Assembly (NCBI GenBank): GCA_965222075.1
Contig: OZ244937.1
Coordinates: 3,616,001 to 3,680,000, forward strand
Origin: Candidatus Latescibacterota bacterium
Lineage (GTDB): Bacteria > Latescibacterota > UBA2968 > GCA-2709665
Length of the DNA: 64,000 nucleotides
Direction: 5' to 3'
Under the pieces are notes generated by a model, which was given only the letters and a program-made list of their open reading frames with translations, did not search any database and was not told where the DNA came from. Below, one piece after another: positions 1,368 through 31,780 of the stretch. Every line of letters starts with the position of its first letter. Positions within the stretch are counted from its first letter, which is position 1. The translations under genes were made by a program, and so were the position numbers.

Positions 1368-2531
1368 TCAATACCCAAATGCCCGAATCGCCTCCTCTGC
1401 TACCTCGATCCCGAACCCCGGCGCGTCGTTGGGCGCCAGCCAGCCGCCCTCCGGCACCGCCTGTCCCGGGCCGGCGGCCTCCTCCAGCGGCACCCCGGGC
1501 GCCGATCCGATAAAGCACTCGGCCCAGGGCGCATTAGAGGTTGCAAAGGTAAAGTGCTGCCCGTAAGGGGTGTTTCCGCCCCCGTGCAGGATCACGGAAA
1601 GTCCTGCCGCATCGGCCATGTGGGCAATCTTGACACACTCGGAAAGCCCTCCCACCCACTTGATATCCGGCTGCAGAATATCCAGCGACCCCGCCTTGAC
1701 CATCTGCATATAGGGCCAGCGCGTATACAGGTGCTCTCCCGATGCCAGCGAGACCCAGTTCACCGCTTCCCGCACCGCCCGGTGACCGTCGATATCCTCC
1801 GGAATCAGGTACTCCTCGATCCACTTCAACCGGTACGGCTTCAACCGTCTGGCCAGGCGGATCGTGTACTCCACATCGAACGCCATATAGCAATCCAGCA
1901 TCACCTCCACTTCATCTCCCACCTGCTCCCGGGTCTTGGCCACCAGCCGCTCGTTTTCGTCCAGTCCCCCCAGCCCGTCCGCCGGCCCGTAAGGACAGGC
2001 CAGCTTTACCGCCTTGAACCCCAGTTCGAGCTGCCAGTCCGTATCGTTCCCCGTCGCATAACAGAAAATCCGGTCCCGCACCGGCCCGCCCAACAGTTCG
2101 TAGACCGGCTTCCCCTGCAGCTTGCCCACAAGGTCCCACAGTGCCAGGTCCACCCCGCTCATTGCACACGCCGCCAGTCCGGTACTCCCGTAAGGCTTGG
2201 ACATGCGGAACATCATATCCCAGCATTTCTCGATCGCAAAACAGCTCTCTCCCGCCAGCACCGGCCCGAAGTGGTCGTCCACGATCGCCGCCACCGGCCT
2301 CCCAAACGTCGTCTGCCCCAGCCCGAAGGTCCCGTCCTCCGCCACCGCCTGCACCCACACCGCCCCCCACTTCTTCGGCTGCCACAGCGAGCGGTGCCGC
2401 TTGTAGGCCGGAAACCGCGACATCGGATTCGCCACCTCCGCGTCGGCCCCCCAGGAATCCCGCCGGGGCTGCGACCTCCTCTGCCGGGCCGGCAGATCGA
2501 CCTGCACCGCCCGAATCTCCTTGATCTTCAT
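1368..2531 (-). CDS. Mandelate racemase/enolase-superfamily acid-sugar dehydratase, L-rhamnonate dehydratase-like
   Basis: 387 aa; SGVDLALWDLVGKLQGKPVYELLGG, KAVKLACPYG, MLDCYM, WIEE, ASGEH, LQPDIKWVGG motifs. Confidence 0.85.
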   Translation of the reverse strand: MKIKEIRAVQVDLPARQRRSQPRRDSWGADAEVANPMSRFPAYKRHRSLWQPKKWGAVWVQAVAEDGTFGLGQTTFGRPVAAIVDDHFGPVLAGESCFAIEKCWDMMFRMSKPYGSTGLAACAMSGVDLALWDLVGKLQGKPVYELLGGPVRDRIFCYATGNDTDWQLELGFKAVKLACPYGPADGLGGLDENERLVAKTREQVGDEVEVMLDCYMAFDVEYTIRLARRLKPYRLKWIEEYLIPEDIDGHRAVREAVNWVSLASGEHLYTRWPYMQMVKAGSLDILQPDIKWVGGLSECVKIAHMADAAGLSVILHGGGNTPYGQHFTFATSNAPWAECFIGSAPGVPLEEAAGPGQAVPEGGWLAPNDAPGFGIEVAEEAIRAFGY

Positions 2532-2641
2532 CGGTTACCCCTCTTTTTGGTCTCTTTCAACGCCTTCTCACACATATCCGGCACAGAATCGCCGTCTTTA
2601 CTCCCATCGTCCCCCGCTCCTGAATGGTGGATTGCGGTGTC

Positions 2642-3568
2642 TCACGCTTCCAGCACCATTCTCAGCAGCGCCATCCGAATATACAGCCCATTGTGCGCCT
2701 GCCGAAAGTAGGCCGCCCGGGGGTCCGAGTCTACCTCCGGAACGATCTCGTCCACCCGGGGCAGCGGGTGCATCACCCGCGCCTGCTCGGACAGGACCTC
2801 CATCACCTGCATATCGACAACATACCTCCCCCGCGCCTTCTCGTAGTCCTCAATCCGGTCCCCAAACCGCTCCCGCTGGATCCGGGTCTGGTAGATCACA
2901 TCCACCTTTCGGCCCACATCCAGCAGGTCCTTCTCCTCCTTAAACCGGACCCCGTGCCGCCGGAGGTAGTCCTTGATATCCTCCTTCATCCGGACCACAT
3001 CCGGGGCCACAAAATACAGGGTCACGTCGTCGTACTTGGCCAGCAGGTAGGCCAGAGAGCGGACCGTGCGGCCGTTGGCCAGGTCTCCCACCATTGCCAC
3101 CGAAATCCCGTCCAACCGCCCGATCTCCTTCTGAATCGTATACACGTCCAACAGCGCCTGGGTCGGGTGCTGCCCCGGTCCGTCCCCCGCGTTCAGAATA
3201 GGCACCGAAGCCACGTCGGCCGCTCGTCGGGCCGCCCCGCTTTGAAAGTGCCGCAGCACAATCACATCCGCGTACCCCTCCACAATCCGGATCGTATCCT
3301 CTAACGTCTCCCCCTTTGCCGCAGAGGAAAACTCCTGTGCGCTCTCGGTCGTAACCACCTCCCCCCCCAGGCGGTGCATGGCCGACTCGAACGAGAGGCG
3401 CGTCCGGGTGCTTGGCTCGTAGAAGAGCGTGGCCATAATCCGGCGGTTCAAAATGTTGGAGCCGTAGCGGCTTACAACCTCCTCCATCTCCCGGGTCACC
3501 GAAAAGATCTCGTTCAAGAGGTCACGGTCAAACTGCTGGGCCTCAACGACGTGGAAAAGCCGGTCCAT
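2642..3568 (-). CDS. pyrB: Aspartate carbamoyltransferase catalytic subunit
   Basis: FYEPSTRTRLSFE, NAGDGPGQHPTQALLD, MHPLPR motifs; AGGAGG SD. Confidence 0.97.
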   Translation of the reverse strand: MDRLFHVVEAQQFDRDLLNEIFSVTREMEEVVSRYGSNILNRRIMATLFYEPSTRTRLSFESAMHRLGGEVVTTESAQEFSSAAKGETLEDTIRIVEGYADVIVLRHFQSGAARRAADVASVPILNAGDGPGQHPTQALLDVYTIQKEIGRLDGISVAMVGDLANGRTVRSLAYLLAKYDDVTLYFVAPDVVRMKEDIKDYLRRHGVRFKEEKDLLDVGRKVDVIYQTRIQRERFGDRIEDYEKARGRYVVDMQVMEVLSEQARVMHPLPRVDEIVPEVDSDPRAAYFRQAHNGLYIRMALLRMVLEA

Positions 3569-19932: not shown

Positions 19933-20282
19933 ACTGCTTGGAAAATAACCTTTCGGTCTCCGTCATCCGCAATCCCGCCCCACCCTTTCCCATGCCTTCG
20001 GCGAGGCCTTTTTCTTGCGCGCCCAAGAAAAAGGCCGAAAAAGAAGGGCGCCGCTCAAGCGCCGCGGGGGCTGCTTTTCCGCGAATTGTCCCTGTGGTGG
20101 AAGCGGAAGCTTCTGCCCTGCGAGCGCTTGGGGATTCACAAGGCGCAGGTGATGGACGGAACCGCGCGGAAAAGCCCCATCCCCCCGCCCCAAAGGCGGG
20201 GGAGGCGAGACGCGGCAACGATTTTCATCATTATGGGTGCCCCAATGGGGGCATGGCAACTGCTTGGAAAATAACCTTTCGG
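19933..20282. repeat. Structured non-coding element flanked by the 24-bp direct repeat ACTGCTTGGAAAATAACCTTTCGG
   Basis: Repeat copies at 19933-19956 and 20259-20282; several nested hairpins between them. Confidence 0.7.
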
Positions 20283-24927: not shown

Positions 24928-26481
24928 TTATGCGGGGAGCATCGGGGGTGTTGTGAGGTAATTCTTGATCCGAACCAGGTTGACCCATAGGCCACGACAC
25001 CGCGCCCACAATTGGTGTGGCCTCAGTCCGCGATAGCGCGTCTTGCCATCTTTGGTGTAGTAGCTCAACTGAAAGATGCTGGCTTCGACGTTATTGCGTC
25101 GGTTTCTGATGTGGTCAGGCAGGGCTTCAATCTGTTTGCGTTTGAGGTAATTGTCGATGTGCTGTTCTTTAAAGTATCGGGGTTTGCCATCCATGATGAT
25201 TTTGTATTTTCCCGGTTTGTATTCTTGGGCTATGTGAACCTCTCCGGTTTGTTGATCAATGACGGTGACGCCGTCTTCTGTGCGTTCATAAATGAAACGT
25301 CCTGGGGTTCCTTGCAGGCCACTGTAATAGAATTGCTTGTCCTGTTCTTTTGCATACTCGGCGTTGGATTGATCATTATAGGCCCCATCCATTGACACTT
25401 CCAAGACGTCACCCACCACCTGTTGCGTCCGCTCGATGGCCGCTTGGACAAACGCATTGTCGGGCGTCGTCGCCGGTTTGACGTCAACGTCCGTGATCAA
25501 ATTGAGGCCGTCCTCACCACAGGTCTCGGTGAGGTTGACACTGTATCCTTTCACCTTGTCCTTCCCTTTCCTGCGAAAGGCCGCCTCTTCATCATCGGCA
25601 GACTGCAAGGAGGATGAGGAGATCTCTTCAGGAGGCTTCGGAAGCACCTGTTTGGAGGACGATAAAACGGTATATTGATCCCCCATAACACGCACGATCA
25701 GACCATAGTGACCGCTGTCTTTGTCGGTATAGGTCGCTTGAAGCCTGCTCAATAACTGCCCGAATTCCTGCAGCTTCTCACACTTTTCAACGCGGGTGAG
25801 ACCATAGACAACCTGATGCGCCTTCACCTTGAGCAATCCGTCCAAAACCTGCTGATTTTTTGCCGATAATCGTCGCTTTTGGGACTTGTCCAACGACCCC
25901 CAGAACGCTTGTAAGCAACTCACCACCAACTGCAACCGACAACAAAGGGCAATGTTCGAGCCGATCAACTTACTGTCCATTCGGATGTGCTGACCCAATA
26001 CACCAAAGGCGTTGGCCTGCGTCCTGGTTAAGCTGGAAAAGGTCTCTCCAATCAGATCTCGACCGGCTTCGAGTTGATCCGCATACAATGCCTGCTTGAA
26101 CAAATAATACGTGGACTCCGCAGGCACTTCATCGCATAGATTCATCAACCCCAATGCCCGCATCACCAGGATGTTGAACCGACAATGCTCGAATAGTCCT
26201 GTCTGCGTGCGACGCACAGGCAGGTGGGCATCGCTCCACCCAAAGCCCTCCTTCAAGATCATCATCGACACCAGTTGACGAATCGGCGCATTGGGGCGGC
26301 CTTGGTTGGGATCAAACAACACCGAAAACACATCCTCATCTATCTTTGAGGTGACGTGCTGGTAAAACAGATTATGCCACGACTTCGGATCATTCAACTG
26401 GTCCTGCTTGCGCCTCTTGAAATGCGACTCGAAGCCCGAAAACAGATCCGGTTGGCTGCATGACGCGCTTCTCTTATACAT
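24928..26481 (-). CDS. DDE transposase carrying a 9-aa in-frame insertion
   Basis: GRPNAP, RMDSKLI, MDGAY, RRNNVEASI. Confidence 0.85.
   Translation of the reverse strand: MYKRSASCSQPDLFSGFESHFKRRKQDQLNDPKSWHNLFYQHVTSKIDEDVFSVLFDPNQGRPNAPIRQLVSMMILKEGFGWSDAHLPVRRTQTGLFEHCRFNILVMRALGLMNLCDEVPAESTYYLFKQALYADQLEAGRDLIGETFSSLTRTQANAFGVLGQHIRMDSKLIGSNIALCCRLQLVVSCLQAFWGSLDKSQKRRLSAKNQQVLDGLLKVKAHQVVYGLTRVEKCEKLQEFGQLLSRLQATYTDKDSGHYGLIVRVMGDQYTVLSSSKQVLPKPPEEISSSSLQSADDEEAAFRRKGKDKVKGYSVNLTETCGEDGLNLITDVDVKPATTPDNAFVQAAIERTQQVVGDVLEVSMDGAYNDQSNAEYAKEQDKQFYYSGLQGTPGRFIYERTEDGVTVIDQQTGEVHIAQEYKPGKYKIIMDGKPRYFKEQHIDNYLKRKQIEALPDHIRNRRNNVEASIFQLSYYTKDGKTRYRGLRPHQLWARCRGLWVNLVRIKNYLTTPPMLPA
26198..26224 (-). 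repeat. 27-bp hairpin insertion element, copy 1
   Basis: CCTGTCTGCGTGCGACGCACAGGCAGG on +; removal restores WSDAQLFE. Confidence 0.85.
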
Positions 26482-26728
26482 CGATACTGTACCCTCGCTT
26501 TTTCCTTTTTACATCCGCAACTTTGAAACCTTTTCTCTCTTGGAATTTAATACTTTTTCCTCAATAAGTAAACTCGACTTTTCGGAGTGGACTCAATATT
26601 GGGTACCTAAGCTTGGAGTTTGAGAGGCCGCAGCGCCTGTTTTGCGTCACTCAGTTCCGGGGAACCAAAATGGATGGCGTTTCTGGCATACCGCCCGTTC
26701 AACTTCGCGCGGATCGACGAGTCACACC

Positions 26729-26840
26729 ATGCTGGATCATGAAGTGAGACCCGACGACATCTCAGCACTGTTCGCGGCCGGCGAGTACGAGACGCTGGAG
26801 TTCAAGGCCACGACCGAGACGCGTCGCGAGGCTACCATGA
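26729..26840 (+). pseudogene. N-terminal remnant of an AlbA_2/Schlafen-domain protein
   Basis: ISALFAAGEYETLEFKATTETRREAT, cut off by the adjacent IS remnant. Confidence 0.7.
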
Positions 26841-27116
26841 GTGATGTATAACGTTTCTGTTGGTTCTGGCCAAGTCTTAGGATCAGACAACTTGAACTTG
26901 GCGCCGTGTATTGGAGGACGTCCCCATCCTCGATAGGGGGGTGGGGGTCCCCAAAGACATCGATTGGGACGGATACGGATGACCTGATCGGCGTCAATAT
27001 CGGCCGTGGTTTCCACGAAAGGGGCACAGCCATATTCTGAGTCCCACAAGCTGATGGGACGACCCTTCACCGCTTTTGACACCCGACGGAGTTGGTCCGC
27101 GCCTTTCTTTATCGGA

Positions 27117-27143
27117 CCTGTCTGCGTGCAACGCACAGGCAGG
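27117..27143 (-). repeat. 27-bp hairpin insertion element, copy 2
   Basis: CCTGTCTGCGTGCAACGCACAGGCAGG on +; removal restores STTDPIKKG. Confidence 0.85.
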
Positions 27144-27449
27144 TCGGTTGTGCTTTGGATGCGCTCATGTAATAAAGGCAGCGCAAAGCTTCGCTCCTCA
27201 TCGGGAAGAAAGGCGAGGGTGCTGTAGCCTTGCCCAATCGTAATGGGCTTGTTGCCCCATATCGGGGTGGGATGATGCTCAATGGTTCGGTCGCGTAAAG
27301 TCCGCGCTGACAATCGCGGCCAAGCCGTGTGATCTCCCACAAAAAGGGGACGATCATCTACTTTTATCTCATCAGCATAAAGCTTCAACAACGCGTTTTG
27401 GTCTGGACGACCATCTTGAAGGGCTTCATAGACACTTGGCCACTGCCGA

Positions 27450-27474
27450 CCTGCCTGTGCTGAAGGCAGACAGG
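27450..27474 (+). repeat. 25-bp hairpin insertion element, copy 3 (opposite orientation, variant loop)
   Basis: CCTGCCTGTGCTGAAGGCAGACAGG; removal repairs the frameshift to PVFRRQWPS. Confidence 0.85.
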
Positions 27475-27978
27475 CGAAAAACTGGAGCAAGGGATAGCTC
27501 GGCAAAGCTATTGGCCGATGGGGTTAACAACACTGCGTCGAGCAGATCAAACAGCGCATCTTTGGCTGTGCCTAATCCTTCATAGGCGGTTTGACGAAAG
27601 GCGCTCAGCCGCTCATACTGTTTTCCAAAAACCGGATCTGAGATCGCACAGGCATCTTGAATATACTTGACTTCCGAGGGGTCTGACGATAGCTTTCTCA
27701 TCGTGGGCTCCTTAGTAGAATACAGACTCTTTAGCGAAAGGCTGTATTCAATTTACTTTGGAGCCCCTTCTATTTCAACTCTTTTAGTCTAAACACGAGT
27801 GTCATAGCAATAGCACGAAACGAAGCGCGACAGCGATCTATCACCGCGCTGGACACAGGTTCTGCCCGAGGACGCGCTACAAGCACCGACAAAACTCAAC
27901 CGGCGAATCGGAAACGCTGGCATTCAAGGCAACAAGGCCGACGCCCCGCCGCGAAGGGACCGAACGAGAGGCAAGCAA

Positions 27979-28563: not shown

Positions 28564-28828
28564 TGTTCCGCCCTGTCCGCCGGTAAGCCGATAGAGAATT
28601 GGGGATGGGACGCCAGATCTCAACCCTGACTCTGGTCGATTGTGAAAAGTGTATCCTGCGCGAGGCCAGAGACGGTTTTGGCGACCTTCCGGAGTACTAC
28701 CCGTGCCCGCGAGACCAGGCAATCGAAGCGTCTCGGCGGGTCGGAGACGCTGGAGTTCACGGAGCGGCTGGAGTTGGAGATGCCGCAGTGTCTGCCCCGC
28801 ATCGCCCGTTTCAGGGGACCCGACCGGT

Positions 28829-31780
28829 ATGACTGAACTCAACATAACTGAAGCAGGCATCGTCCAGTTCCCCATGGTCCGCCACGCGGCCGAGATCGGG
28901 TGGACTCCGATCTCGCCGCAGGCAGCGATGCGCAAGCGCGGCGGCGAGACCGGGATGTTGTTCCGGGACGAGCTGGAAGGAGCACTCGGGCGGTTCAACC
29001 CCTGGATGACGGACGAGGCCATCCGCTCCGTGGTCGAGCGGCTCGAAGCGGTCCCGGCGACGATTGAGGGCAACCGCGAGATGCTTTCCTGGCTGCGCGG
29101 CGAGCGGCAATGGTACGACGAGGTCGAGAGCCGCCATCGGCACGTTCAGATCGTCGATTTCGATCGGTCAGCCGAGAACGTCTTTTATGTCACCTGGGAA
29201 TGGAGACTCAAGCCTCCTGCTCGCAAGGGCAACCGGGCCGATGTGATGTTTGTCGTCAATGGCGTACCGGTCGCCATCGTCGAGCACAAGAATCCCAAAG
29301 ACCGCAACGCCATCGAACGAGCCGTCACGCAGCTCAAGCGCTACGAGCAGGAGACGCCCGAGCTGATGGGCGCGGCGCAGCTCTTCAACGTCACGCACCT
29401 CCTTGACTACTGGTATGGTGTGACCTGGAACGCCAACCGGCGTTTCATGGCGCGCTGGAAGGAACGCCCGGAAGAGAGCTACCGCTTCGTGGTCCAGTCG
29501 TTCTTTGAGCCGACGGACTTCCTGCGCACACTGCGGGACTGGATCCTTTTCTACGTCGAAGACGGCGAGACGCGGAAATCCGTGCTGCGCCAGCACCAGC
29601 GCCGCGCGGTCGACCGCATCGTGGAGCGCTGCGCCGAGCCGGCGAAGCGGCGCGGGCTCATCTGGCATACGCAGGGCTCCGGCAAGACCTTTACCCTGCT
29701 CACCGCCGCGCGTTTGGTCCTGGAACGCAAGGATCAGTTCCGCACACCGACGGTGGTCGTGGTTGTGGATCGGACGGAAATCGAAGGACAGCTCAAGGGC
29801 TGGGTTGAAAGGCTCTTGGGCGAGATGCAGCAGCAGGACATTGCGGTCTGGCGGGCGAACTCCAGGTCCGAGATGCAGGAACTGCTCAAGACCGACAAAC
29901 GTGGCCTGATTATCTCGATGATCCACAAGTTCGAGGGGATCGATAGGGACGCGAGCACCCGCGACAACATCTACGTCTTCATCGACGAAGCACACCGCTC
30001 GGTCGCCAGGGAGCTCGGCACCTACATGATGGCGGCGGTGCCGAATGCCACCATCATCGGTTTCACCGGCACGCCGATCGCCAGGACCGACCAGGGCGAG
30101 GGCACGTTCAAGATTTTCGGCGTTGATGACGAGTTGGGCTATCTCGACAAGTACTCCATCGCCGAGTCGATCGAGGACGAAACAACGCTGCCGCTCCGCC
30201 ACACCATGGCGCCGAGCGAGATGACGGTGCCGGCCGAGCGGCTCGACAAGGAGTTCTTTGAACTGGCCGAGGCCGAAGGCGTTACCGACGTCGACGAGCT
30301 CAACAGGATCCTCGATCGAGCGGTCGGCCTGCGTACCTTCCTGGCCGCTGACGACCGGATCGAGAAGGTCGCCGCGTTCGTCGCCGAACACTTCAAGGAG
30401 AACGTGGCGCCGCTCGGGTACAAGGCATTTCTTGTGGGCGTGAACCGTGAGGCTTGTGCCAAATACAAGCGCGCGCTGGACAGGCTTCTGCCGCCCGAGT
30501 GGTCGGAGGCCGTCTACACCAAAAACGCGGCCGATGTCATTGACCGTCCGCTCGTCGCGGAGTTGCAGCTATCGACGAAACGCGAGGAGGACGTGCGCCT
30601 CACGTTCAAGAAGGCGGATGAGAATCCGAAGCTCCTCATTGTCACCGACAAGCTGCTGACGGGCTATGACGCGTCGCTTCTCTACTGCATGTATCTCGAC
30701 AAGCCCATGCGGGACCATGTACTCCTGCAGGCGATCGCGCGTGTGAACCGCCCTCACGTGGACGCGAACGGCGTCCGCAAGCGCATTGGCCTCGTCGTCG
30801 ACTTCGTGGGTGTGCTGCGCGAATTGAAAAAGGCATTGCGGTTCGACTCGACCGATGTCAGCGGCGTGATCGAGGATCTCGATCTTCTTCTCAAGGACTG
30901 TCTGGACAAGATCGATCGGGCGAAAATGGAATACCTTGGCGACGAGGGGAGCGGCGGCGCGGACGAGCGCCTGGAGAAGATTGTCTACGGCCGCTTCCTG
31001 GATCCGGAGTCGCGCAAGGCGTTCTGCGAAGCCTACAAAGAGATCGAGGCGCTTTGGGAGATCCTGTCGCCCTCGCCGGAACTGCGCGACCACATGGATA
31101 CGTTTAAGCGGCTGGCGGGACTCTACGCCGTTGTCCTGAACGCTTATAAGGGTAAAGTCACGTACGAGGAGGCTCTCGGACGCAAGACGCACGGGATGGT
31201 GCAGGATAGCGCTACCCAGGAAGGCCTTGGAGACCTGATCAAAACAGTGACGTTCGACGTGAGCACCGTCCAAGCGCTTCGAGGCGAGCCGGGCTCCGAC
31301 GAGGCCAAGGTTTTCAACCTGGTGCGGGGCCTGCGGGCCGAGGTCGAAGGCGAGCCGGACAAGGCACCCGTGCTTCGACCGCTCAAGGATCGCGCCGAGC
31401 GCATCCTGGAGGACCTTCAGAACCGCAACACGACCAGCCTCGTCGCGATGGACCAACTGGCGACGCTGGCGAAAGAGAAAGAAGAGGCAGTCAAAGCCGC
31501 GAAAGACAGCGGTCTGTCCACCCGTGCATTCGGTGTGTACTGGACGCTCAAGGAGGCGGAGGCGCTCAGGGCCGTCGGTATTGCTGCCACAAAACTGGCG
31601 CAGGAAGCGGAAACGCTCCTCGCCCGCTTCCCGAACGCAACTCTAAACGCCGACGAACAGCGGAGGCTTCGAGCCGCTCTTTATCGGCCTCTTCTCGGTG
31701 TTGACGGAGATGAACGCGCCCGAATCGTCGAGACCATACTCGAAATTCTGCTGGATACTGACACAGATGCACGTTCATGA
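28829..31780 (+). CDS. hsdR: Type I R-M restriction subunit
   Basis: [10 protein letters not shown]...VEHKN nuclease motif, [37 protein letters not shown]. Confidence 0.95.

Follow-up and report, generated by a model that had tools for sequence, protein, structure and literature searches.

Three copies of a small DNA hairpin interrupt two transposase genes in a 64,000-nucleotide stretch of the genome of a Candidatus Latescibacterota bacterium (contig OZ244937.1). The genome is a single contig of 5,360,005 bp (59.3% G+C, 97.6% complete), of which this stretch, called the window below, covers bases 3,616,001-3,680,000; coordinates are those of the window unless the genome is named. The three hairpins are members of a large family of protein-free elements of 21-37 bp, with the arms CCTGYCTG...CAGRCAGG and a variable inner stem and loop, and this family very probably represents an insertion element that is mobile or was recently so.

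Three hairpin copies in two transposase genes

The pattern CCTGCCTGTGC-N3-9-GCAGACAGG has exactly three matches in the window and none in 100 dinucleotide shuffles. Copy 1 (26198..26224, minus strand) is a 27-mer with the loop variant GTCGCAC, copy 2 (27117..27143, minus strand) is a 27-mer with the loop variant GTTGCAC, and copy 3 (27450..27474, plus strand) is a 25-mer with the loop TGAAG, in the orientation opposite to that of copies 1 and 2; all three match the pattern exactly, at the positions and in the two orientations given by the original prediction, which had been made from the letters of the window. When read in the orientation of the element, copy 1 is preceded by ...GCCCA and followed by A..., copy 2 is preceded by ...ACCGA and followed by T..., and copy 3 is preceded by ...GCCGA and followed by C....

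Copy 1 lies in a 517-aa transposase open reading frame (ORF; 24928..26481, minus strand). The PF05598 assignment of this ORF is the precomputed label of an identical database protein, and our own Pfam scan at E<=1e-5 returned no family for it. At E<=1e-20, 2470 homologs were found and, among the best 120, many are 508 aa long, that is 517 minus 9. At the site of the hairpin the host reads DAH[LPVRRTQTG]LFE, where 10 of 11 aligned homologs read DAQ-LFE. Three homologs (P0002, P0004 and P0005) carry other members of the element at other positions, translated for instance as PACASHADR and LPVRVARTQTG, which indicates that this transposase family has been struck repeatedly and independently.

Copies 2 and 3 share a second host, a DDE_5 (PF13546) transposase gene (26762..27701, minus strand; Pfam E 2.2e-15), which is read in two frames, 27426-27701 and 26762-27505. 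At copy 2 the host reads STTD[LPVRCTQTG]PIK and all five aligned homologs read STTD-PIQ/K. Copy 3 causes a frameshift between PVFR and RQW, and the two resulting fragments, an N-terminal one of 91 aa and another of 247 aa, align to one continuous homolog. When compared with homologs of 437-454 aa, this transposase is without about the last 170 residues, its C-terminal third. Thus, these alignments bear out that exact removal of the hairpins restores the host frames (DAQLFE, TTDPIK and PVFRRQW), that the two 27-mers add the in-frame peptides LPVRRTQTG and LPVRCTQTG, and that the 25-mer shifts the frame, as had been proposed.

Filled and empty alleles

Contigs assembled from public runs of four studies were compared with the window over positions 25900-27800. 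On one X10 contig, exactly 27 nt fewer are present at 27117, copy 2 being missing, and on another X10 contig exactly 25 nt fewer are present at 27450, copy 3 being missing. For the X10 contigs ending at 26197, the next 12 letters match the bases that follow copy 1 at 11 of 12 positions, so that the sequence beyond 26197 would be consistent with an empty allele of this copy as well. The X2 and X3 contigs keep copy 3 and bear a further 27-nt GC-rich palindrome behind 27430. From these allele differences it follows that the element is real and polymorphic among related insertion sequence (IS) copies. Furthermore, read depth rises from tens or hundreds to 1,500-3,000 on the bins that contain the hairpin, which points to many more copies in those metagenomes.

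Within the genome itself, 13 paralogous empty sites were found at an identity of at least 80%. In each of them the gap is exactly 21, 25, 27 or 33 bp long, starts with CCTG and ends with CAGG, and no base is repeated on its two sides, in line with the earlier statement that the insertion duplicates no target bases. Each copy is thus a clean insertion, whose outermost bases are the first C of CCTG and the last G of CAGG, made at a purine/pyrimidine step and without duplication. In a survey of the flanks of 217 copies, 105 had flanks unique in the genome, 30 had at least one paralogous empty site and 49 had been copied together with a host repeat. The insertion sites include IS elements, other repeats, copies of the element itself and ordinary genes. 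Several insertions lie within the loop or the stem of another copy, and composites of two or three copies are common, in other phyla too.

Two further observations concern such repeats. A sister 27-mer subfamily with the arms CTTGCCTG...CAAGCAGG is repeatedly found inside the main 27-mer, after CACG, where it gives rise to two-level composites of 54 nt (for example at genome positions 319766, 1545858, 4023658 and 5118783). In addition, a dispersed repeat of about 250 bp occurs in the window at about 20005-20198 (genome 3636005-3636198) and at 30 or more other genome sites; some of its copies carry a 33-mer at a fixed site after GAAGGGCG and some are empty there, as is the window copy.

Size and structure of the family

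Searching the genome with the exact arms (regular expression, loop of 0-12 nt) returned 67 copies, and 217 were obtained when mismatches were allowed. The wider family, CCTGYCTG-N5-21-CAGRCAGG, comprises 222 copies of 21-37 bp, 122 of them with perfect arms and mostly 33-mers, and all copies start with CCTG and end with CAGG. The lengths are far from evenly distributed: 27 bp (50 copies), 30 bp (19), 33 bp (93) and 36 bp (13) on the one hand, 25 bp (17), 28 bp (3), 31 bp (6) and 34 bp (5) on the other, some 31- and 37-mers being overlapping readings of 27- and 33-mers. Multiples of three account for 178 of the 222 copies and for 78 of the 107 distinct sequences. Growth of a stem by base pairs would proceed in steps of two rather than three.

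The copies are clustered, 66 of 214 neighbour spacings being shorter than 3 kb; the spacing has a median of 10.7 kb and a mean of 24.9 kb. IS elements of several families form the hot spots (UPF0236, DDE_Tnp_1, DDE_Tnp_4, IS1595, DDE_5 and PF05598). The original prediction, in which all copies noticed lay in IS DNA, is corrected by the genome-wide survey: mobile DNA is enriched in copies, but 105 of 217 stand in unique contexts and many lie in frame in housekeeping genes.

As for the bulged hairpin that had been described, each of the three window copies does fold, but in 43-nt windows the folding energies beat those of shuffles only modestly (z -1.2 to -3.1). Covariation across the variants is better structural evidence than the folding of a single copy. 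In 34 distinct 33-mers with perfect arms, one register, which has a two-base bulge, gives pairing in 142 of 170 cells of the inner stem, against 81 of 204 and 47 of 170 cells in two control registers. Two-sided changes occur at pair 12-24 (C-G to A-T) and at pair 14-22 (C-G, A-T and T-A). This inner-stem pairing, together with the two-sided changes, suggests that the hairpin is under selection. In the variants with an A in the right arm, T9 pairs with that A in a shifted register, which indicates that the stem can slip. A search of the stretch against Rfam returned no family, its sole match being a chance snoRNA (E 0.55) away from the element.

A one-sided target motif

The target site was derived from 73 distinct flanks of the asymmetric type, in which the right arm carries the A. 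At position -4 a C is found in 58 of them; at position -2, G or C stands in 64 flanks and A in none; position -1 is A or G in 70, and position +1 is T or C in 68. The resulting motif, C-N-S-R^Y, is one-sided and always lies 5' of the CCTGCCTG arm, and comes close to the motif RCCSA that had been read from the three window copies. No mirror motif was seen downstream in these flanks, a G at +4 being present in 27 of 73, near background. In 55 of 73 flanks the bases at -1 and +1 can pair with each other by complementarity, compared with a background of 24%, and no palindromic target was detected past position 1, positions 2 and 3 not being complementary. The insertion steps are A^T in 33 cases, G^C in 22, G^T in 6 and A^C in 4, and the -4 C is present in 30 of the 33 flanks of the A^T class. 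The final four bases of the element itself, CAGG, also match C-N-S-R.

Copies inside ordinary genes

Genic positions were called from stop-to-stop ORFs and a rule on the G+C content of third codon positions (GC3), and are not gene-finder predictions. By this measure, 127 of the 222 copies lie within ORFs of at least 100 aa with a codon-position signal. In strong ORFs (at least 250 aa, GC3 at least 0.70), 46 of 50 copies are multiples of three in length, and among the four exceptions are two overlapping readings, of a 27-mer and a 33-mer. The lengths that persist in ordinary genes are multiples of three, and the element is translated there as 7-12 extra residues. Among the oriented copies in strong ORFs, 23 are sense and 22 antisense, with no clear bias for the transcription strand.

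The hosts confirmed by Pfam are an AcrB-family transporter, a double-length UvrA (two copies), PurL, a UvrD-like helicase (two copies), HsdR, a xanthine-dehydrogenase-type subunit, a hydantoinase, a sigma-54 activator (four copies), a Cas4-Cas1 fusion and a thiamine-pyrophosphate (TPP) enzyme. The purL gene carries a 33-mer and a 21-mer located 13 bp apart, both of which are missing in the same-genus genome G001 (92% amino acid identity). In the acrB-like gene a 27-mer is read as LPVRRTQTG; these nine residues are missing in three aligned orthologs, and in G001, G003 and G004 the matching stretch is shorter by 27 nt. Frameshifting 25-mers were found in IS DNA, namely copy 3 of the window and two more in a DDE_Tnp_4 element that is present twice in the genome.

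Some neighbouring genes are also worth recording. A 69-aa ORF on the plus strand (26642-26851), ending ...EYETLEFKATTE..., adjoins the DDE_5 element at its truncated end; it may be what is left of a gene that the IS has cut. Directly downstream of the IS cluster, a 1043-aa ORF (28649-31780, plus strand) resembles the R subunit of a type I restriction enzyme, and a second HsdR-like gene (genome 5154159-5157269) contains an in-frame 33-mer.

Distribution in relatives and in other phyla

Of 41 related genomes, 16 have exact asymmetric copies (0 to 57 per genome) and 18 have perfect-arm copies (0 to about 100 per genome), zeros and hundreds being met within one genus, and the reversed control pattern gave no match in any of the 41. 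Sharp differences are seen in one genus between G003 (about 86 copies) and G007 (none), and in another between G009 and G021 (about 100 each) and G006 and G014 (0-2). In the whole phylum, 38 of 168 genomes contain a match. A scan of one genome per species returned at least 119 stretches with exact arms. The titles of 80 of these stretches name Lentisphaeria, Thermodesulfobacteriota, Planctomycetota, Verrucomicrobiota, Nitrospirota, Acidobacteriota, Anaerolineales, Firmicutes, Campylobacterota, Thermotogae, Spirochaeta, Latescibacterota and others; these labels are taken from contig titles, and bins of metagenome-assembled genomes (MAGs) may include foreign contigs. The contigs that bear these stretches are up to 5.8 Mb long, and the loci have a GC content of 36-72%. 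In the at least 119 stretches, 32 of 123 copies fall within an ORF of at least 200 aa and 90 of 123 are multiples of three. Spread between phyla would have occurred by hitch-hiking inside IS elements and small repeats.

Search for a moving enzyme

The genome has one intact and one broken gene for a Y1 transposase (PF01797). The intact gene has end hairpins that are unrelated to the element. The broken gene is preceded, at about 40 bp, by a 25-mer that was itself inserted, since three paralogous stretches are without it. In the 41 relatives, the presence of Y1 genes does not correspond to copy number: G019 has 57+30 copies (57 exact) and no Y1 match, and G004 and G038 have no copies, with 32 and 75 Y1 matches, respectively.

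Some other Y1-like sequences were noted. In G002, G003, G020 and G021, a partial Y1_Tnp-like region (profile positions 40-121, E about 1e-9) occurs within open frames of 1200-1441 aa; the one at G021:C1:4547970-4548200 has an exact hairpin about 300 bp upstream, and none of these long-frame matches was found in G000 or G019. At genome positions 3018501-3018743 (L125) there is a low-GC IS200-like element whose tnpA is interrupted by a TAG codon. Related fragments at about 2735600-2736400, 5142890-5143660 and 5233905-5234101 have no detectable Y1 gene, and two of them have been hit by the hairpin, at different sites.

A gene linked to the element was sought by clustering the ORFs of at least 90 aa from the at least 119 loci of other phyla. 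The largest cluster covered 8 loci and consisted of ABC ATPases, and the second was made of two-component regulators. A look for a gene of the HUH or RAYT kind flanked by the same hairpin had also been suggested; only four ORFs are flanked on both sides by copies, and none of them is a Y1 gene. Two of these four were scanned with Pfam, one being a transposase-like fragment without Pfam family and the other a sulfatase-modifying-factor/VWA protein. No parent element bounded by the arms was found, unpaired left arms being mostly nested composites. The genome contains no reverse transcriptase domain (PF00078), and no extra paralog of type IA topoisomerase was detected, 40 of the 41 relatives having one topA. 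In genus g2, the topA open frames are 763 or 779 aa long, the domain match being 45-48 nt longer in the 779-aa set (G009, G011, G012, G017, G019, G020 and G021).

Thus, neither the element nor its neighbourhoods or the bracketed ORFs revealed any coding capacity or linked gene, and movement would therefore need a factor supplied in trans. Taken together with the precise insertion and the fixed orientation, this agrees with the ultra-small non-autonomous element that the original prediction had put forward.

A single-strand model and its alternatives

To account for these data we propose a mobile hairpin that is moved in trans by a putative strand-specific cut-and-join enzyme, a statement to which, as a whole, we would give an even chance. 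The element would travel as a folded single strand, and the trans-acting enzyme would cut one strand 3' of C-N-S-R and join the element there. As the CAGG end of the element carries the same four-base signature, a single cleavage specificity could serve the target, the left junction and the right junction. The stem would keep both ends of the element side by side, and the complementary bases at -1 and +1 of the target would stack on it as an extra base pair.

Several points weigh against this model. Each of its mechanistic steps is inferential, since the searches for an enzyme found none, and all the evidence for mobility is comparative, so that present-day activity could only be inferred from it. 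The complementarity of -1 and +1 would be equally expected from a double-strand cut at a self-complementary step. The perfect-arm copies, when oriented by their bulge, show the motif on the expected side but more weakly, with the equivalent of the -4 C in 53 of 94. Among 121 distinct flanks from other phyla, a -4 C is present in only 45, and the site is mainly defined by a G at -1 (97) and a C or T at +1 (98), which means that the C-N-S-R rule may hold for certain lineages only. A strong bias for the lagging-strand template is shown by fork-dependent single-strand transposons, IS608 among them; with origin and terminus placed from cumulative GC skew, 89 copies fall on the lagging-strand template and 115 on the leading one (p 0.08), which is no clear bias and leans the opposite way, the copies moreover not being independent. 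Finally, 18 of 21 copies sampled in G019 and 20 of 20 in G009 lie at one position of a larger repeat (loci L183-L222), with at least 14 bp of common flank on either side; the high counts of these genomes thus reflect amplification of the carrier and overstate the number of insertion events. Flanks very similar to those of this repeat were also seen on contigs titled Latescibacterota (L039 and L049).

Other explanations were considered. The HUH (IS200/IS605) mechanism favoured by the original prediction would have a Y1 transposase of the IS200/IS605 or RAYT kind, encoded elsewhere, move the hairpin as single-stranded DNA and recognise the target motif by guide bases. Absence of duplication, a 5' motif, fixed orientation and a hairpin are hallmarks of this family, and the genome does have its intact and broken Y1 genes, the latter with a 25-mer close by. 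However, that 25-mer is an insertion in its own right, the intact gene has unrelated end hairpins, Y1 does not follow copy number in the relatives, and the element is a single hairpin with no guide bases outside the stem, no distinct left and right ends and no clear bias for a replication strand; the mechanism thus appears unlikely. We are equally doubtful of a double-strand route, in which an unrecognised transposase or nuclease would cut bluntly at an R^Y step that is self-complementary, and the duplex would be pasted in, like a MITE (a miniature transposable element with inverted repeats) reduced to its terminal repeats. The arms are indeed inverted repeats, the two prevailing steps, A^T and G^C (33 and 22 of 73 flanks), are both self-complementary, hot spots lie in IS DNA and there is no clear strand bias with respect to replication or transcription. 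Such a cut is difficult to reconcile with the lack of any duplication at the 13 clean empty sites, with a target motif that is one-sided and coupled to the orientation of the element, and with the scarcity of A^C and G^T (4 and 6 of 73), which are equally R^Y on both strands; no longer element bounded by the arms was found either.

Type IA topoisomerase (TopA) cleaves a single strand four bases 3' of a cytosine, with a 5'-phosphotyrosine link. Two cleavages at the foot of the hairpin, rejoined crosswise, would excise or insert the element. The -4 C of 58 of 73 flanks, and of 30 of 33 in the A^T class, fits such an enzyme, as does the -4 C in the 3' end CAGG of the element, and the universality of TopA, encoded by one topA without paralog in 40 of 41 relatives, would explain the presence of exact arms on contigs of many phyla without a linked gene. 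A preference of bacterial and archaeal topoisomerase I for cytosine 4 nt upstream of the cleavage site is given in PMC3467081. On the other hand, the -4 C is far weaker outside the own genome (45 of 121), the copy number is patchy within one genus (0 to about 100) though all its members have topA, and the proposed cuts would fall at a paired stem base and not in an open single strand. We know of no precedent for a topoisomerase IA moving a defined element, and consider this route improbable. The same low probability attaches to the broader idea of a coding-compatible DNA parasite of 21-37 bp, with neither a protein nor a transposase of its own, that would be moved by a universal single-strand cutter, with type IA topoisomerase as candidate, and would cross phyla inside IS elements. 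A still less probable alternative is an RNA intermediate, the hairpin being transcribed and then inserted by reverse splicing or reverse transcription: the mismatch of the outer stem does become a G-T(U) wobble on the strand opposite to the target motif, as would suit an RNA hairpin, but the absence of PF00078 from a 97.6%-complete single-contig genome, the even 23 sense and 22 antisense copies in strong ORFs and the lack of an Rfam family argue against it. It is hardly credible that the hairpin is not mobile at all, whether as an artefact of adapters or of assembly, or as a functional motif that is conserved and arose in place. The same 20 specified bases in many MAGs could suggest contamination, but contigs from the runs of the four studies cover the sites, filled in other studies and empty in X10, as the original prediction's own doubt about an artefact would have it checked; in addition, copies lie on contigs of up to 5.8 Mb with loci of 36-72% GC, the reversed pattern is absent from all 41 genomes, and orthologs and paralogs are precisely without the insert.

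Comparison with known elements

With respect to kind, the element would come closest to the small dispersed repeats (SDR) of heterocyst-forming cyanobacteria. Elhai reportedly described in 2008 such repeats (SDR1-8), of about 21-27 nt, confined to a coherent cyanobacterial subgroup, forming a hairpin with compensatory changes and nested in their own copies and in small transposons, with no gene of their own and no known enzyme; an RNA route is said to have been proposed for them. The likeness would extend to the size class (21-37 nt here), the hairpin with covariation in its inner stem, the nested composites together with copies inside the repeat of about 250 bp and the larger repeat of G019 and G009, and the lack of an own gene and of a known enzyme. 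In contrast, the sequences would be unrelated, and the present element is found on contigs labelled with many phyla, including non-cyanobacterial ones, has three-periodic lengths with in-frame translation in housekeeping genes, follows a defined one-sided target motif with -1/+1 complementarity, and occurs in a genome without reverse transcriptase, against the RNA route reportedly proposed for SDR.

MITEs are likewise non-autonomous, have inverted-repeat ends, hitch-hike and nest, but the element described here makes no target duplication, has no parent IS with the same ends and is five to ten times smaller. IS200/IS605 elements and their non-autonomous derivatives (palindrome-associated transposable elements, PATEs) insert without duplication 3' of a short motif, in a fixed orientation and in dependence on DNA hairpins; they have distinct subterminal hairpins at the left and right ends, with guide bases outside the stems. 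The present element similarly makes no target duplication and inserts in one orientation 3' of a short motif, as a hairpin, and differs in being a single hairpin of 25-33 bp, against more than 100 bp, with nothing outside the stem, in not co-occurring with Y1 genes and in showing no clear bias for the lagging-strand template.

Rickettsia palindromic elements are said to be 100-150 bp long and limited to one genus. Like the hairpin, they are palindromic repeats that are translated in frame within protein-coding genes, but the hairpin is smaller, at 21-37 bp, and widespread. They are referred to Ogata et al. 2000 in PMC3184786. The REP (repetitive extragenic palindromic) and REPIN sequences, with their RAYT (Y1) transposases, are treated by Bertels and Rainey 2011 (PMC3116915), and a conserved REP head GTAG or CGTC is given by Di Nocera et al. 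2013 (PMC3733652). Our element resembles them as an imperfect palindrome of 20-40 bp with tens to hundreds of copies per genome (222 here) and, in other phyla, by its mostly intergenic appearance, ORFs of at least 200 aa holding only 32 of 123 copies. In the present genome, by contrast, the copies are not confined to extragenic DNA (127 of 222 in ORFs of at least 100 aa, at least 46 in strong ORFs); there is no GTAG or CGTC head, there are no regular inverted doublets and no RAYT gene is bracketed by copies. Furthermore, one sequence is found across phyla, compared with one REP per lineage.

The literature searched, supplementary files aside, contained no mention of the arm sequences, of the peptide LPVRRTQTG or of an equivalent element. 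What is new here is the spread across phyla, the three-periodic lengths compatible with coding, and the definition of a target rule.

Mobile DNA is generally taken to depend on ends recognised by a dedicated transposase, and small non-autonomous elements are usually at least 100 bp long and leave duplications. Here, a hairpin of 25-33 bp inserts cleanly, nests in itself and survives in essential genes as in-frame peptides; the same 20 specified bases recur on contigs labelled with many phyla, yet no tested candidate enzyme tracks the copies. In practice, the copies break short-read contigs and, when unrecognised, mimic frameshifts or odd insertions in annotated genes. To our knowledge, the movement of the cyanobacterial SDR has been unsolved since 2008; if a mechanism were found for the present element, it would explain these repeats as well. 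It would also represent a new single-strand DNA transaction, and the element would provide both a marker of recent horizontal transfer and a source from which proteins acquire short loops. If the universal-cutter explanation proved true, the hairpin would be a mobile element of minimal form and would offer short peptides a new way into proteins.

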